Shown here in pieces: positions 27,526 through 51,933 of a stretch of 64,000 nt of DNA (positions are counted from its first letter, which is position 1; the number at the start of each line of letters is the position of its first letter). Made by a program: the position numbers and the translations under genes. The notes under the pieces are model-generated. The model did no database searches. It saw nothing but the letters and a program-made list of their open reading frames with translations, and was not told the origin of the DNA. The stretch is from a virus. Its lineage: Duplodnaviria > Heunggongvirae > Uroviricota > Caudoviricetes. The DNA is taken from the IMG/VR virus record IMGVR_UViG_2690316068_000002; one strand, 5' to 3'.

Positions 27526-27864
27526 GATGTTTTCTTAATGGTGTTATTATCGCAATAACGCACAGGCGAAAAAGGATTTTATTCCGGTGAATGTGGTTTT
27601 GGCAGTGAGTTTTCAGGTTCAGTACCGAGTACACTTTTTACATTATTCTGATTTAGTGGCCGAAGGTGGCTGGTGGGCAGAATAATCCTCTCCCCGAAAA
27701 CCTACTGAAATCGATTGTGACCCGTTGGCTGTCTGGCACAATTACGCTGTAGCTGGGCATTCAGAGGGAGTCCAACGGTAAGTTAGTCCGCCTGCACGTG
27801 AGCGCCTCTCTTCTTCCCGCACATTACAGGTGTGTAGCCGCAACTCTCCCTCTCGCTATACCGG

Positions 27865-28010
27865 TACGCCGCCGTTCCTGAACCGGCATCGATCCTTTTC
27901 CCGAAATCCATACAGGCAACTCGACCGTTTCCCTGAAAATCCCCAGCCGTTCCCCGAAGGCAACCCAGCCATTTCTGTAGCGGGATGCAACCTTTTCCCT
28001 GTATGGACCG
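27865..28010. repeat. Iteron-like direct repeat cluster 2 (CCGTTTCCCTGAAA-type)
   Basis: Six imperfect direct copies (gccgttcctgaa, ccttttcccgaaa, accgtttccctgaaaa, gccgttccccgaa, gccatttctg, accttttccctg) at ~24-30 bp spacing; same repeat family as 24700-24860. Confidence 0.65.
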
Positions 28011-28039
28011 AAGGCTGACCGTAGGGGTGTTACGGGGGA

Positions 28040-28920
28040 TAAAATCAGGAGTTGAATAAATACGAAAAAGGAGGCGACACCCCTCCTTCCCTCCCCACTT
28101 ATACATACCTGGCTTCTTCGCTATACATGTTGTGTTTTCTTCGTGTTTTATCTGTCTCAACCTCTCTATAGGCGTTAATGCTCACTCCTTCCAGAACGTT
28201 CTATACGGCGACTATTTCTGTTGGTGAATTGGGTGTGTTGTTTTCTCTGTCGGTGTATGTGGTTTCGTTCGTTTTGCGGTGGTTCTTCTAGGGGGTGTTC
28301 TCGTCGTTTTGGTGATTGTTCTTCTCCATGTATGGAGTAATGGCAGGTGGGCGATTCCTTTCGTTATTGTGTTTGAGTTGTTTGTCTGGAGTGTGTGAAA
28401 GGCTTTTGTAGTTATTCGTGTATTGGGTAATGGCGTTTCCCGTGATTGTTATGCTTCGAGTCTTTTGGGATTGAGAGAATCCTTGCGGTTACAGGCTTCG
28501 TTGGGGTTTCAGTGATTCTGGTGTTTCTTCGCTGTTTGGGGAATGGCGTGTCGTGGGTATCGCGCGTATGAATGTTTTCGGATTGCCTGTGAAAGTTAGG
28601 TTGGTTGTCCGGTAGCCTGGGAAGAAGAGGTGGGTCTTTTCGGTAGCCTGCCATAAAGAGGTTGGTTGTTTTGGGTAATGGCATATGTGTTATTTAGTTG
28701 TTTTGTTATGCCTGAAAATAAGTTGTTTATATGGTTGTGTAACGCAACGGGAGCGATTTTGAGCGTGTGTTTTTGTTGGTAGTGTGTTGGGTCGTCTGTG
28801 GTGAAAATTGGACGCTGTGGCGCTGTCTGCTGCGTAGAATTACGGGTATAAGAAGTGATGTGTGAATACGTCAATTTTTTAGACCAAATCGGGTGAAAGC
28901 GTTGACGTTTCGTTGATCTG
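28040..28920. other. ORF-free, strongly GT-skewed region with loose ~100-bp periodic motifs
   Basis: About 75% G+T on the plus strand over ~0.9 kb; recurring GG(G/A)TAATGGC and GGTAGCCTG...AGAGGTnGGT motifs; no credible ORF on either strand. Confidence 0.6.
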
Positions 28921-29081
28921 TTATTTAGTTGTTTTCTTATTGGTATAAACAACGTTAACCTATTGATATTTAAAGGTGTGATTGCAGGTATGGAAGAAGA
29001 GTAGTGGCGATCAACGGATTCTTATAGAAAAGAATCAAATTGTGACCGCCATTATCAACTGATTGATTAAGCTAATTACAC

Positions 29082-30311
29082 TCAAACATCCCCGTTCTTA
29101 ATCCACTGCCTGACTTGCTCGTCTTGTGCGACTTCTTTCTCATGTTTGGCAATATACAAGTCTGGCAATAGGGGTGGAGCGAATTCAGGCTCTGTCGCAC
29201 GCCACTTTTCATATGCGTCACGCATGGATTTCTCAACATTCCAATGCTCCAACTCTTGGTATTCAATCGGCCAGTTATCCTGCAATCTCTTCACTGCATT
29301 AGCCAGGTCGTATCGGAAGTAAGGATTAAGACCAATGAAATTACCAGCCAGCATGTCATCAACCTCCTTCACTCTGGCAATCTTAGAAAACTTACCAATA
29401 GCAATGTTGAGGTCCCAATCTGACACGAACAACAAAAGTGCTGCAAATGCCAGAAACTTAGCTTCCCCGTATGCTCTGTCGCTAACCGTTTTTGTCTGAA
29501 ACTCAATGTAATTGCCCATCACAAAACTAGTAAGCTTATAGGTCTTACTTATCTCGTCCTCCAAATGCGATGGATCGAGAATTGTGCGGTCACGATTATT
29601 GTTTATGTGTTCTAAGATTACAGCAATGTCTCTATGTGAGACTGAAATTTCACGCAATTGCTGGAGAGTCTTGATGTGAACTCTTAGCACCTCTTTGTCA
29701 ATCGCACGCTTCCAAGAAAAACCAGGCACAGTAACCTGAATGGGCGCGAAAGGTAGAATATCAGGAGTTGTCCATGCTAGATATGCATCACGTAACCCAC
29801 TAATATAATAAAGCCAGTCTAAATGCTCGCTTTCTAACCATATTTCAAATGTGGAATCCTTTCGCTTATTGAAGAACCATTCCCTCATCTGCCACATTTT
29901 TTCTTGAGTAAATATCCCTTCCTGTATGCCGGCACAGACCAGCTTTCGTATTACCTGCGAATACTTTGTTCGATCTTTTGTGAATGAGACAAGGTGCTGC
30001 TTCACCTCAGATGTTAGTCTATCTCCATAGAAATCACATGATGGATGATGGCCTTGACCATCTTCACCGGTAAATCTGAAATGCGCCTTCTTGTGATAGC
30101 CACCATTCCTAGTGGCTCTAACGAACGAACCACCTCCAACTTTGCAAATGGGGCAGATGATATCGTCACGGGCAATAGCATGAACCGAGCTGTCATCTAA
30201 ATTCTTTAGCGCCAAGTACTGCTCAGGATCGACTTCTTTTTGTAACGATTTTGAAAAAGCGGTATCAGTCATTCCAAGCTCCGAGCAAGGGGTTATTTGT
30301 TCAATTATCAT
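29082..30311 (-). CDS. Hypothetical protein with N-terminal Cys/His zinc-ribbon-like motif
   Basis: 409 aa; CPICK...(28 aa)...HHPSCDF cluster near N-terminus; no other recognisable domain. Confidence 0.55.
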   Translation of the reverse strand: MIIEQITPCSELGMTDTAFSKSLQKEVDPEQYLALKNLDDSSVHAIARDDIICPICKVGGGSFVRATRNGGYHKKAHFRFTGEDGQGHHPSCDFYGDRLTSEVKQHLVSFTKDRTKYSQVIRKLVCAGIQEGIFTQEKMWQMREWFFNKRKDSTFEIWLESEHLDWLYYISGLRDAYLAWTTPDILPFAPIQVTVPGFSWKRAIDKEVLRVHIKTLQQLREISVSHRDIAVILEHINNNRDRTILDPSHLEDEISKTYKLTSFVMGNYIEFQTKTVSDRAYGEAKFLAFAALLLFVSDWDLNIAIGKFSKIARVKEVDDMLAGNFIGLNPYFRYDLANAVKRLQDNWPIEYQELEHWNVEKSMRDAYEKWRATEPEFAPPLLPDLYIAKHEKEVAQDEQVRQWIKNGDV

Positions 30312-30442
30312 TCGGAATTATTTACTGTCTCGCCCAGTTTCACGTCATTTTATTCCCTAGTCTAGCTTTTCTAGGGTATACAGCTTATTACAAGCTCCTC
30401 ATTATTAACTGTTTCCGTAACTCATTGATCCGCTTATACACT

Positions 30443-30751
30443 CTACCAACACCAGCACTCAAGCCCTTCAACGATCGGCGCACCACAATCAAAATGTACA
30501 GAGTCAAAGCCTACATCAAGTACTTTCTGAATGTTAGCAATCGCGCCTTCGGATATACCATATCGACGCAAGTTGTCTTTCCAGACATCATCCTGTAACC
30601 CGGCGTGGACAATACAACCGCCGTCAATTTGTGAAACCCAATCCAGCTCATTGCTTGCGATCATGAACCGGCGAGCATCTTCCTCTGATGTATGAGATGA
30701 ACTGATCAATGCCACCTGGTAGGCTTGGGTAATGTTCAACATTTCAACCAC
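30443..30751 (-). CDS. Hypothetical protein
   Basis: 102 aa ORF; motif-1 copies in both orientations immediately upstream (30754-30825). Confidence 0.5.
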   Translation of the reverse strand: MVEMLNITQAYQVALISSSHTSEEDARRFMIASNELDWVSQIDGGCIVHAGLQDDVWKDNLRRYGISEGAIANIQKVLDVGFDSVHFDCGAPIVEGLECWCW

Positions 30752-30903: not shown

Positions 30904-32937
30904 TTACTTAACTTGGTGGCCTGGTTTAGCACCAGCATCCGGGCTTAACAGGAAGATATCTTTTCCGCCAGGGCCAGCAGCCATCACCATGCCTTCAGAG
31001 ATACCGAAGCGCATTTTACGCGGAGCCAGGTTAGCCACCATAATTGTGTGACGACCAATCAGTGCCTGTGGGTCTGGATAAGCAGAACGGATGCCTGAGA
31101 AGACATTACGCTTTTCACCACCGAGATCCAGTGTCAGGCGCAACAGTTTGTCAGAACCTTCAACAAACTCCGCGTTTTCAATCAGCGCCACACGCAGGTC
31201 AACTTTGGCGAAGTCGTCAAAGGTGATGGTTTCCTGAATCGGGTCGTCAGCCAGTGGGCCAGTTACCGGTGCGGCTGTGGCTTTCACTTCTTCTTTGGAT
31301 GCTTCCACCAGTGCTTCCACCTGTTTCATATCGATACGGTTATACAGTGCCTTGAACGGATTCACTTTATGGCCCAGCAGCGGTTGCTGGATACCATCCC
31401 AGGTCAGTTCTGTATTCAGGAATGCTTCTGCACGTTCAGTCAGTTTCGGCAGTACCGGTTTCAGGTACGTCATCAGCACGCGGAACAGGTTAATGCCCAT
31501 AGAGCAAATCGCCTGCAGATCGGCATCGCGCCCTTCCTGCTTCGCCACCACCCACGGAGCCTGTTCATCGACATAGCGGTTAGCCAGGTCAGCCAATGCC
31601 ATGATTTCACGGATAGCTTTACCAAATTCGCGGCTTTCCCATGCTTCGCCAATCACTTCAGCGGCATCAGTAAAGGTTTTGTACAGTTGCGGGTCAGCCA
31701 GTTCGCTTGCCAGCACGCCGTCAAAACGCTTGTTGATAAAGCCTGCATTACGGGAGGCCAGGTTAACCACTTTGTTCACGATATCGGCATTCACGCGCTG
31801 AACGAAATCCTCCAGGTTGAGATCGATATCATCAATGCGCGAAGAGAGTTTCGCAGTGTAGTAGTAACGCAGGCTGTCGGCGTCAAAATGATTCAGCCAG
31901 GTGCTGGCTTTAATAAAGGTGCCGCGAGACTTGGACATCTTCGCGCCGTTCACCGTCACATAGCCATGAACAAACAGGTTGGTCGGCTTGCGGAAGTTGC
32001 TGCCTTCCAGCATGGCAGGCCAGAACAGGCTGTGGAAGTAAACAATATCTTTACCGATGAAGTGGTACAGCTCGGCGGTGGAGTCTTTCTTCCAGTATTC
32101 ATCGAAGCTGGTGGTATCGCCGCGCTTGTCGCACAGATTCTTGAAGGAACCCATGTAGCCAATCGGCGCGTCCAGCCAGACGTAGAAATATTTGCCCGGC
32201 GCGTTCGGAATTTCAAAACCGAAGTAAGGCGCATCTCGGGAGATATCCCACTGTTGCAGGCCGGATTCAAACCATTCCTGCATTTTGTTCGCCACCTGCT
32301 CCTGCAACGCGCCGCTGCGGGTCCATGCCTGCAACATTTCGCTGAAAGAAGGCAGATCAAAGAAGAAGTGTTCGGAATCACGCATTACCGGGGTAGCGCC
32401 AGAAACCACCGATTTCGGCTCGATCAATTCAGTCGGGCTATATGTTGCGCCGCAGACTTCACAGTTATCGCCGTATTGATCTGGCGCTTTACATTTCGGG
32501 CAGGTGCCTTTTACAAAACGATCCGGCAGGAACATGCCTTTTTCCGGGTCGTACAACTGAGAGATAGTGCGGTTTTTAATAAAACCGTTCTCTTTCAGGC
32601 GAGTATAGATAAGCTCAGACAACTGACGGTTCTCTTCGCTGTGCGTCGAGTGATAGTTGTCATAGCTGATGTTAAAGCCTGCGAAATCAGTCTGGTGTTC
32701 CTGACTCATTTCGCCAATCATCTGCTCCGGTGTGATACCAAGCTGCTGTGCTTTCAGCATGATCGGCGTACCGTGGGCATCGTCGGCACAGATGAAATTA
32801 ACCTCGTGGCCGCGCATTCGCTGGTAACGAACCCAGACATCAGCCTGGATGTGCTCCAGCATATGGCCGAGGTGGATTGAGCCGTTAGCGTACGGCAGCG
32901 CGCACGTCACCAGAATTTTCTTCGCGACTTGGGTCAT
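30904..32937 (-). CDS. metG: Methionyl-tRNA synthetase
   Basis: 677-aa product from [29 protein letters not shown] (HIGH motif), KMSKS motif, C-terminal tRNA-binding domain; near-identical to enterobacterial MetG from memory. ORF-track upstream extension (to 33066) rejected. Confidence 0.95.
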
Positions 32938-33094
32938 AGTAGGCATTACTTCTTTGTAGTGAAAAGGGGCTTGATAGTAACAAAATGGCCTTATGTCTGC
33001 CATGTGATAACAGCATTTCTCATAAATGATTAAATGTCGTAGCTGGAGTACACTACAAGGCGACAATTGCGCAAATTAAAATAAAGGAGACGGG

Positions 33095-34195
33095 ATGAGC
33101 GAGTCCAAATCGCCGGATGCCCTGAGAGCAATGGTAGCCGGTACGCTGGCTAATTTTCAGCACCCAACCCTGAAACACAACCTGACTACGCTTAAAGCGT
33201 TACACCATGTTGCGTTGATGGATGACACACTGCATGTCGAACTAATCATGCCTTTCGTGTGGAATAAGCCTTTTGAAGACCTGAAAGAGCAATGTAATGG
33301 TGATCTGCTCCGTATCACTGGCGCAAAGGCTATTGACTGGAAGCTGTCGTACAACATTGCCACGCTTAAGCGCGTCAAAAACCAACCAGGTATTAATGGC
33401 GTTAAGAACATTATCGCCGTCAGCTCAGGCAAGGGCGGCGTGGGTAAATCCTCCACGGCGGTAAACCTGGCACTGGCGTTGGCTGCTGAAGGTGCGAAAG
33501 TTGGTATTTTGGATGCCGATATCTATGGTCCATCAATTCCAACCATGCTGGGCGCGGAAAACCAACGTCCAACCTCACCTGACGGTACTCACATGGCACC
33601 TATCATGTCTCATGGCCTGGCAACCAACTCTATTGGTTATCTGGTCACCGACGACAATGCAATGGTGTGGCGTGGACCGATGGCCAGCAAGGCGCTGATG
33701 CAGATGTTGCAGGAAACTCTATGGCCTGATCTGGACTATCTCGTTCTCGATATGCCGCCGGGCACTGGTGATATTCAGTTGACGCTGGCGCAGAACATTC
33801 CTGTAACTGGTGCGGTTGTGGTAACTACGCCGCAAGACATCGCGCTGATCGATGCGAAGAAAGGCATTGTGATGTTCGAAAAAGTCGAAGTGCCGGTACT
33901 GGGTATCGTCGAAAACATGAGTGTGCATATTTGCAGTAACTGCGGTCATCACGAGCCAATTTTTGGCACCGGTGGCGCACAGAAACTGGCCGAGAAATAC
34001 AACACGCAGTTGTTAGGCCAAATGCCACTTCATATCTCTCTTCGTGAAGATCTGGATAACGGAACACCAACCGTTATTAGTCGTCCAGATAGCGAATTTA
34101 CGGCTATTTATCGTGACCTCGCAGATCGCGTTGCTGCCCAAATGTATTGGCAAGGTGAAGTAATACCTGGCGAAATCGCATTCCGCGCAGTGTGA
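33095..34195 (+). CDS. apbC: Fe-S cluster carrier ATPase ApbC/Mrp
   Basis: 366 aa; P-loop SSGKGGVGKSS, CxxC motif (CSNCGHH), divergent from metG as in enterobacterial chromosomes. Confidence 0.9.
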   Translation: MSESKSPDALRAMVAGTLANFQHPTLKHNLTTLKALHHVALMDDTLHVELIMPFVWNKPFEDLKEQCNGDLLRITGAKAIDWKLSYNIATLKRVKNQPGINGVKNIIAVSSGKGGVGKSSTAVNLALALAAEGAKVGILDADIYGPSIPTMLGAENQRPTSPDGTHMAPIMSHGLATNSIGYLVTDDNAMVWRGPMASKALMQMLQETLWPDLDYLVLDMPPGTGDIQLTLAQNIPVTGAVVVTTPQDIALIDAKKGIVMFEKVEVPVLGIVENMSVHICSNCGHHEPIFGTGGAQKLAEKYNTQLLGQMPLHISLREDLDNGTPTVISRPDSEFTAIYRDLADRVAAQMYWQGEVIPGEIAFRAV

Positions 34196-50812: not shown

Positions 50813-51457
50813 CTAATGAACGGTTACTCGGCCACAGAACCGGTTTTCTATCTTTTCTACAGCGTTATCTAGCATTCTCATCACTGATCTGGCTCTTGCT
50901 TCAACCGTGCGATATCGGTTGGAAACGACGAAGGTTTGCAGATCTCCCCTTTGCGGATGCAGGTGAATTTTTGTCAGTTCCCCGCACATCAACGCATCAA
51001 TACGAGCGACATACAGACGGTCTAATGATGCTCGTTGTGATCGCAAGTAATCTCGCTCTGAGAGAGCGACCCCCGGGCGTAGGCCAGCAATGGCGTTAAA
51101 GTTTGAAATAGCAGTTTTGTGGCAAAACTTTTCGATATCGAGGGCTAACTCAATACACCGATCTTCATTTGTATGGCCAACCAAATCCAACGTGTAGGCC
51201 ATAACATCAGCAGGTGTGCGATCGATAACAAAGCCTTCAACACCACGTGTAAGTAGCTCTATATGCTTTGCTATTTCCATTTGAATCTGAAGCCGCTCAT
51301 ATAGAGGCATAGACTCACCTACTCGAACACCGAGGCGGCTCATCAAACTTCCGACACCAGCATCCACGTAAGGGATTCCGTAATGTTTGTCGATATATTT
51401 AGCCAGGGTTGTTTTCCCACTGCCCTGAGCACCAGTGATCCCAATCCGGTAATCCAT
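50813..51457 (-). CDS. P-loop nucleotide kinase (dNMP/nucleoside kinase-like)
   Basis: 214 aa; Walker A GAQGSGKTT at N-terminus; sits in the nucleotide-metabolism cluster. Confidence 0.55.
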   Translation of the reverse strand: MDYRIGITGAQGSGKTTLAKYIDKHYGIPYVDAGVGSLMSRLGVRVGESMPLYERLQIQMEIAKHIELLTRGVEGFVIDRTPADVMAYTLDLVGHTNEDRCIELALDIEKFCHKTAISNFNAIAGLRPGVALSERDYLRSQRASLDRLYVARIDALMCGELTKIHLHPQRGDLQTFVVSNRYRTVEARARSVMRMLDNAVEKIENRFCGRVTVH

Positions 51458-51933
51458 TACGACCTTCTGTATACGATCTGCGAAAAGCCAGGCTCTTCCT
51501 CGCTGGCTCGTTGGGTATAAGCTGTTTCAACAGGCACAAAGCCTAAGTTACGCATCATGCTTGCCGGGAAGAATGCATCGGCGTTTGGTACATCAACGCC
51601 GATGTGGGAGAGCCAAATCTCTTCAACATGCGGCATGAATAGCGAGTAAATTTGTTCCCCGCCAATCACCCACACAGGCTCTGGTAATCGCAACACATCA
51701 TCCACACCAGCAGGGTAGAATCCATTTGGTACAAAGCCATGAGAGCGCGTCAAAACGAGGTTATGACGCTCTGGAAGAGGGCGTTTGAGACTTTCCATCG
51801 TTTTACGCCCCATAACGACAGTGGCGTTTTTGGTGAGTCTCTTAAATAGCTTCAGATCGGTAGAACAACGCCAGGGCAGTTCGTTCGCTATGCCGATCTC
51901 ATAGTTACGGCCAACAGCAGCGATCATCTTCAT
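51457..51933 (-). CDS. Dihydrofolate reductase
   Basis: 158 aa; colinear with FolA (IAAVGRN..IG....PW, VVMGRKT, WVIGG..IY). Confidence 0.8.
   Translation of the reverse strand: MKMIAAVGRNYEIGIANELPWRCSTDLKLFKRLTKNATVVMGRKTMESLKRPLPERHNLVLTRSHGFVPNGFYPAGVDDVLRLPEPVWVIGGEQIYSLFMPHVEEIWLSHIGVDVPNADAFFPASMMRNLGFVPVETAYTQRASEEEPGFSQIVYRRS

Follow-up and report, generated by a model that had tools for sequence, protein, structure and literature searches.

The whole stretch of DNA analysed here, 64,000 nucleotides in length and referred to as the window, is an E. coli SSU5-type phage-plasmid. It is assigned as such because it matches E. coli plasmids of ~110 kb at 98–99.8% identity, has a phage gene content and encodes a protein which is 57% identical, over 97% of its length, to SSU5_107 of Salmonella phage SSU5. 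Positions 1–25000 carry tape measure, portal, terminase, ParB and DEAD-box helicase genes and match plasmids only, with no chromosomal matches (0 places), whilst positions 34000–58000 hold nrdAB, thymidylate synthase and related genes. The gene encoding the SSU5_107 homologue lies between these regions on the minus strand, where an intact open reading frame of 409 codons was confirmed from the first ATG (29082..30311). Its surroundings are as follows.

27560..29066, minus strand: conserved non-coding element of ~1.5 kb, outside the gene and given for context
29067..30436, minus strand: cargo cassette of 1.37 kb, which replaces ~15 nt of empty-slot plasmids (alignment with L072, L073 and L071)
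30443..30751, minus strand: small DUF5983-family gene (Pfam PF19419, E = 8e-10; phrog_5003; annotated by RefSeq in sister plasmids)
30904..34195: captured host-type block, fixed in the lineage, comprising metG (to ~32937, minus strand) and apbC (33095..34195, plus strand)

The true start of the gene is probably Met14 of the open reading frame (ATG 30272..30270), giving a protein of 396 amino acids. The features which bear on this are listed here.

29082..30272, minus strand: probable coding sequence of 396 amino acids, from Met14 of the 409-residue frame to the TGA stop, placed by the starts of homologues and phrog_12525 and by pLDDT
30273..30311, minus strand: 13-codon extension of the longest open reading frame, the start used by RefSeq and in the first-pass annotation
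30279..30282, minus strand: Shine-Dalgarno motif GGAG, 6 nt before the Met14 ATG, as read from the sequence
30304..30331, minus strand: sigma-70 promoter-like site, GAGACA, 16 nt spacer, GATAAT (9 of 12 positions match; a consensus match only)

Met14 is favoured because nearly all homologues, along with the phrog_12525 profile, begin at residue 14 of the 409-residue frame, because residues 1–13 are the sole disordered part of the AlphaFold model (pLDDT <50), because GGAG is suitably placed 6 nt upstream, and because the first ATG (30311) overlaps the –10 hexamer of the single promoter-like site found upstream. A Shine-Dalgarno sequence was sought upstream of the ATG at 30311 and none was found. 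Promoter-like sites in the region as a whole are fewer than in shuffled sequence. RefSeq annotates the 409-residue form in some plasmids (e.g. WP_230467036, L001 11083-12312), most database entries having 396 residues. Since the ATG of the longer form sits within the promoter-like –10 hexamer, the RefSeq start is probably a mis-call, and 30273..30311 is probably the 5′ untranslated region of the 396-residue gene.

The protein combines a small N-terminal module with a larger helical domain, each marked by a conserved motif.

30036..30155, minus strand: metal-binding signature C53-x2-C56 ... H88-x3-C92 (codons 53–92), with the AHFRF strand between the knuckles
29319..29345, minus strand: G-N-x-I-G-L-N-P-[FY] loop (codons 323–331), the most conserved motif of the C-terminal helical domain

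The N-terminal Cys/His cluster recognised from the sequence at the outset is real and occupies residues 53–92. Its four ligands, C53, C56, H88 and C92, are invariant in all 49 of the diverse family members compared, and H77 is present in 47 of them; on this alignment, the cluster is under selection. An AlphaFold2 model computed from the family alignment (mean pLDDT 87, pTM 0.80) predicts four short strands between the knuckles (residues 61–64, 67–69, 72–74 and 77–80; pLDDT 76–88 for the block), the N-terminal module being followed by an all-helical domain at residues 116–406. The CCHC site would be expected to bind zinc. In the model, it resembles zinc ribbons such as Zn_Ribbon_TF, Zn_ribbon_InsA and zf-Di19 in that CxxC and HxxxC knuckles flank short β-strands. 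It scores below the curated thresholds, however: Pfam zinc-ribbon hits recur across family members at sub-threshold level, with no significant match to a curated zinc-ribbon model or to a solved structure. The knuckle spacing of ~31 residues with its four-strand meander is specific to the family, as is a conserved N-terminal strand, M-x-x-T-A-[FY]-S ... E26-x-D28-x-x-Q31. Also conserved are the AHFRF strand, R143 within a conserved helix, an A[FL]xALLLF helix and the G-N-x-I-G-L-N-P-[FY] loop, in which N324, G327 and L328 are invariant and G323, I326, N329 and P330 are at least 90% conserved. The loop motif is specific enough to have served as a pattern for scanning sequence collections.

Searches for a known domain were negative. 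Pfam and NCBIfam gave no significant match to the 409-residue protein, and PADLOC-DB v2 no system-model match, its sole hit being to SP_VI over 30 residues (E = 0.007). The family profile finds nothing among PDB sequences, and a Foldseek search of PDB and BFVD with the predicted structure returned no neighbour (best E ~0.2). The original description of a protein with no recognisable enzymatic motif is thus borne out by the Pfam, NCBIfam, PADLOC and structure searches alike. Nor was homology to a phage structural or replication protein found, Pfam, NCBIfam, PHROG, PDB and BFVD being either negative or returning 'unknown function', and the gene is dispensable. As modelled, the C-terminal helical fold is novel relative to solved and viral predicted structures only. 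The protein's charge is close to neutral, and its sequence shows no convincing membrane segment.

The protein is nevertheless not the orphan it had been taken for, as its family comprises 86 clusters when grouped at 90% identity and 217 when grouped at 50%. The former were found in a word-indexed search; the latter come from an exhaustive profile search of 1.84 billion representatives (E ≤0.001), 119 of them at E ≤1e-30. Full-length members are nearly all of 350–400 residues and share one architecture without fusions, the shorter entries having the look of fragments. The 409-residue protein belongs to phrog_12525 (E = 6.8e-210, residues 14–408 against profile positions 1–396 of 399), which PHROG places in the category 'unknown function'. 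Every source names family members 'hypothetical', and no mention of an SSU5_107-family protein was found in the literature. The family occurs in SSU5-type elements of Escherichia, Salmonella, Klebsiella, Enterobacter, Citrobacter, Cronobacter, Kluyvera, Serratia and Yersinia, and members of ~30% identity are found in Alpha-, Beta- and Gammaproteobacteria and in Cyanobacteria. It is present on 267 PLSDB plasmids, 67 of which are predicted to be conjugative, and on 27 viral contigs; among 50,697 phage records the only carriers are SSU5 and two Klebsiella phage-plasmids. SSU5_107 itself (YP_006906739, 'hypothetical protein') is a true homologue occupying the same place beside the same non-coding element. 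The window allele differs from it as a distinct type, common to E. coli, Enterobacter and Cronobacter, and these two alleles, which share only 57% identity, coexist in the same host genera. Truncated copies also exist.

The first-pass annotation had set the gene at a boundary between phage DNA and a host-type segment. This boundary does not exist, since phage-plasmid genes flank metG–apbC on both sides. It is correct that metG–apbC lies on that side of the gene; however, the DUF5983 gene intervenes, and the block belongs to the phage-plasmid. In complete E. coli genomes there are 222 plasmid copies of metG–apbC which are only ~90% identical to the chromosomal genes; on this sequence evidence the phage-plasmid captured this core translation gene long ago, and the block has become fixed. 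The phage-plasmid itself therefore carries a methionyl-tRNA synthetase, the product of metG. In the closest sister plasmid, pLR-48_2, a further acquisition is found a few kilobases away from the gene, just beyond apbC.

L001 17333-22001 / L101 2572-8607: region of pLR-48_2 with a complete type I restriction–modification system (hsdM, hsdS, hsdR) and an IS3-family element

The corresponding region of the window contains no open reading frame of HsdR length, and the metG side as a whole would thus seem to be a zone of variable cargo in these phage-plasmids. Further along, the nucleotide-metabolism module includes a gene annotated by RefSeq as the trimethoprim-resistant dihydrofolate reductase DfrA51 (L101 18712-19188 in pLR-48_2; ~51457-51933 in the window by synteny). 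This annotation agrees with a published account of dfrA50/51 in phage-plasmids (PMC12217456).

The gene occupies a defined slot between the conserved non-coding element and DUF5983–metG, with the DUF5983 gene, which sits between the gene and metG, forming its upstream border. The cassette consists of the gene and ~125–165 nt of its own upstream region. The window allele is found in only 36 complete E. coli genomes, always plasmid-borne and always at least 99% identical, and the contents of the slot vary in sister plasmids.

L069 6503-7237, minus strand: pEP91B-1, unrelated gene of 244 amino acids
L070 6513-7082 and 7235-7420, minus strand: pCP53-113k, unrelated gene of 189 amino acids and an open reading frame of 61 amino acids
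L071 5005-5190, minus strand: one sister plasmid, the 61-amino-acid frame alone

In Esc8 plasmid 2 and pSEV1_2 the slot is empty. BLASTP revealed no relation between the slot occupants and the 409-residue protein (E = 3.9 and 0.27), and the alternative genes of 244, 189 and 61 residues have no Pfam or PADLOC match. The site behaves as a small cargo hotspot. The proposal that the gene is accessory cargo is therefore well supported by a 1.37-kb indel cassette whose slot is empty or otherwise filled in sister plasmids. From the variable slot, the cassette indel, the two alleles and the truncated copies, it follows that the gene is dispensable, swappable cargo in E. coli phage-plasmids. The phage-plasmids of Salmonella, Klebsiella and Kluyvera seem to have the gene as a regular constituent, and this would also be compatible with a benefit to the element itself.

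The neighbourhoods of distant homologues were compared across 50 loci from species-representative genomes, in which open reading frames were called and neighbours clustered. No universal partner gene emerged. The commonest neighbours are GajA, an OLD-type ATPase/nuclease, and GajB, a UvrD-type helicase, both confirmed by PADLOC and Pfam; together they form Gabija, and one or both lie within five genes of the homologue at half of the loci (25/50). Four Gabija subtypes are represented (PDLC00093/00111, PDLC00099/00147, PDLC04168 and PDLC00102/00148), in at least five arrangements with respect to the gene. These include convergent pairs with 23–36 nt between the genes as well as upstream and downstream co-directional placements, the gaps spanning 23–214 nt across both orientations. 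After dereplication, Gabija neighbours were retained in 12 of 31 lineages at 90% identity and in only 4 of 15 deep lineages at 50% identity. The link is therefore strong in a single alphaproteobacterial clade, with further instances in Xanthobacter, Shewanella and Pseudomonas and none in other lineages. Gabija was not found within 10 kb in 11 of the 15 deep lineages, the SSU5 type among them, and neither the window nor the SSU5 locus contains GajA or GajB.

Other defence genes recur around the family. Shedu is among the neighbours of homologues, YhcG/PDC-S02 occurs beside an integrase, and in prophage contigs the gene has SIR2/PDC-S25 proteins to either side. Neighbours at the non-Gabija loci include Hachiman, MADS components, Uzume and PDC-M23, and on IncX1 conjugative plasmids the gene is accompanied, within their accessory region, by an Abi or a NACHT protein. 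At several loci the neighbours are umuDC, a 2OG-Fe(II) oxygenase, efflux genes or regulators, a Pseudomonas locus having umuDC and a P2-type tail cluster nearby, and at some there are only integrases, conjugation genes or housekeeping genes. The early label of 'defence-type' cargo holds in so far as homologues adjoin Gabija, Shedu, SIR2/PDC-S25, PDC-S02, Hachiman, Abi and NACHT genes; the support is, however, one of association. Further unannotated families are found repeatedly in these alphaproteobacterial and prophage defence islands and may be additional defence candidates.

L023 9167-9940: family c7, 257 amino acids
L043 11170-12333: family c14, 387 amino acids
L027 8162-9094: family c15, 310 amino acids
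L096 3415-4605: protein of 396 amino acids

The c14 and L096 proteins have in common an R-N-D-x-L-H-G-N motif (Rx4H, a HEPN-like signature), whilst c15 has a weak PD-T7-1 hit.

Because the family consists of accessory mobile-element genes found alongside defence systems, the tentative reading preferred here, with a probability of roughly 0.4, is that the product is a stand-alone conflict or defence protein of mobile elements. It would be a soluble protein of 396 residues carried by SSU5-type phage-plasmids as optional cargo, exerting a single-gene exclusion or defence function which shields the carrier cell or element from rival phages or plasmids. Binding or sensing may fall to the zinc module, and an effector or scaffold activity to the helical domain with its GNxIGLNPF loop, R143 and D246. 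A single architecture, no fusions and no fixed partner gene are as expected for a self-contained module. The gene also has the habits of PADLOC PDC-S25 (SIR2-like) and PDC-S02 (YhcG/DUF1016), which are likewise stand-alone genes on islands and mobile hotspots shuffled beside other systems, and which directly adjoin family members at several loci. Those proteins possess SIR2 or PD-(D/E)xK nuclease domains, however, whereas the window protein has no PADLOC match or enzymatic domain. Curing of an SSU5-like Klebsiella plasmid is reported to have increased both plasmid uptake and phage burst, albeit with no gene assigned to the effect (PMC8969562).

Several observations count against the defence reading. 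There is no PADLOC match and no recognisable enzymatic or effector domain, Gabija accompanies the gene in only 4 of 15 deep lineages, and some loci have housekeeping neighbours only. The near-neutral charge means that the protein is not an obvious nucleic-acid binder. Guilt by association has had a validation rate of ~35–60% in published screens.

The main rival, albeit an unlikely one, is that the protein is a counter-defence factor or modulator directed at OLD-nuclease and UvrD-helicase systems of the Gabija type, neutralising host Gabija when carried by a phage-plasmid and gating or regulating the neighbouring Gabija on islands. The repeated juxtaposition with four Gabija subtypes, convergent and co-directional and at short gaps, speaks for such a role, and the lack of Gabija genes in the window and at the SSU5 locus is as expected of a phage-borne inhibitor. 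The slot also has neighbours such as DUF5983 and DUF1380, families associated with the anti-restriction regions of plasmids and islands. Against this, many lineages lack Gabija, the arrangements include convergent ones, the protein is like no solved structure and the gene is absent from lytic phages. The phage anti-Gabija protein Gad1 (PMC10781630) offers a partial parallel, since it too has a few hundred residues, comes from a temperate phage and is, as may be the case here, linked to Gabija. Unlike Gad1, the window family is also found on chromosomal islands beside Gabija itself. Identity with a Gad1-like protein was considered and rejected, there being no structural or sequence likeness to any PDB chain. 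A Gabija component was rejected also, given the lack of homology to GajA or GajB and the absence of Gabija from most gene-bearing lineages; no published case of a third Gabija gene was found.

It is also improbable that the gene is accessory cargo unrelated to mobile-element conflict, serving instead, for example, in the stress response, in metabolism or in adaptation to the host. Cargo of many kinds is found in the variable regions of mobile elements, the umuDC, oxygenase, efflux and regulator neighbours at several loci would suit such a role, and the other slot occupants are equally without an assigned function. The breadth and recurrence of defence neighbours, on chromosomes, prophages, plasmids and phage-plasmids, are hard to explain by chance on this account.

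A bolder version of the defence reading can be considered, although it must be rated a long shot. In this, the protein would be a new kind of immune protein with an unseen fold and its repeated pairing with four Gabija subtypes a real partnership, for example as an optional third component which senses infection on behalf of the OLD-nuclease/UvrD-helicase defence, gates it or broadens it. Phage-plasmids would then use the protein alone, either to exclude rivals or to hinder host Gabija.

The non-coding element next to the gene merits separate description. The ~1.5-kb GT-skewed region reported on the low-coordinate side was confirmed, having no annotated genes, a GC skew of +0.33 and an AT skew of –0.33 (28001–29000). 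It adjoins the gene in SSU5 and in the E. coli, Kluyvera and Klebsiella lineages, and its conservation exceeds that of the surrounding genes: column identity to SSU5 is ~76%, whereas the protein encoded next to it has 57% amino-acid identity. Read on the minus strand, the element has a C+A-rich first half with five same-strand GCCATTACYC copies (28335–29008) and two tandem 31-nt units containing CAGGCTACCG. A conserved promoter-like site, TTGACG-18-TATACC (28874..28845), with a non-canonical –10, and a terminator-like hairpin (28091..28065) complete a layout that could correspond to a CA-rich RNA of ~770 nt. G+C-rich sequence makes up the second half, in which GGGAAA[AC]GG and cUUCGg motifs recur. 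Rfam gave no match for the element, and single-sequence folding was not significant (z = +0.96). The element is independent of the gene, being present in 239 E. coli plasmids as against 36 with the gene, and missing beside the L084 and L086 homologues. A role for the protein in maintaining or regulating the phage-plasmid, for example on or through the element or in the control of replication or lysogeny, would suit a gene abutting the element in four lineages and a zinc-ribbon-like module, zinc ribbons being common in nucleic-acid-binding regulators. This very improbable role is largely excluded, however: ~200 E. coli plasmids, some of them with an empty slot, have the element but not the gene, the reverse is true of L084, L086 and all distant homologues, and repA is not beside the element, RepA lying ~35 kb from the gene, nor does Pfam detect a helix-turn-helix or other regulator domain.

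This is therefore a real, intact gene of an uncharacterised family and, plausibly, a reasonable candidate immunity gene. Should it prove to have no phenotype, it would stay one of many conserved unknowns on mobile elements. If, on the other hand, the exclusion or immunity function is true, it would represent a single-gene system without a known domain or structural relative, the mechanism of which would be new biology. The recurrent adjacency to Gabija provides a testable lead, in that these proteins may be optional partners or dedicated antagonists of a very common system. An exclusion or immunity function would also mean that a defined site for swapping such cargo exists, beside a conserved non-coding element, in SSU5-type phage-plasmids, a common type in clinical Enterobacteriaceae.
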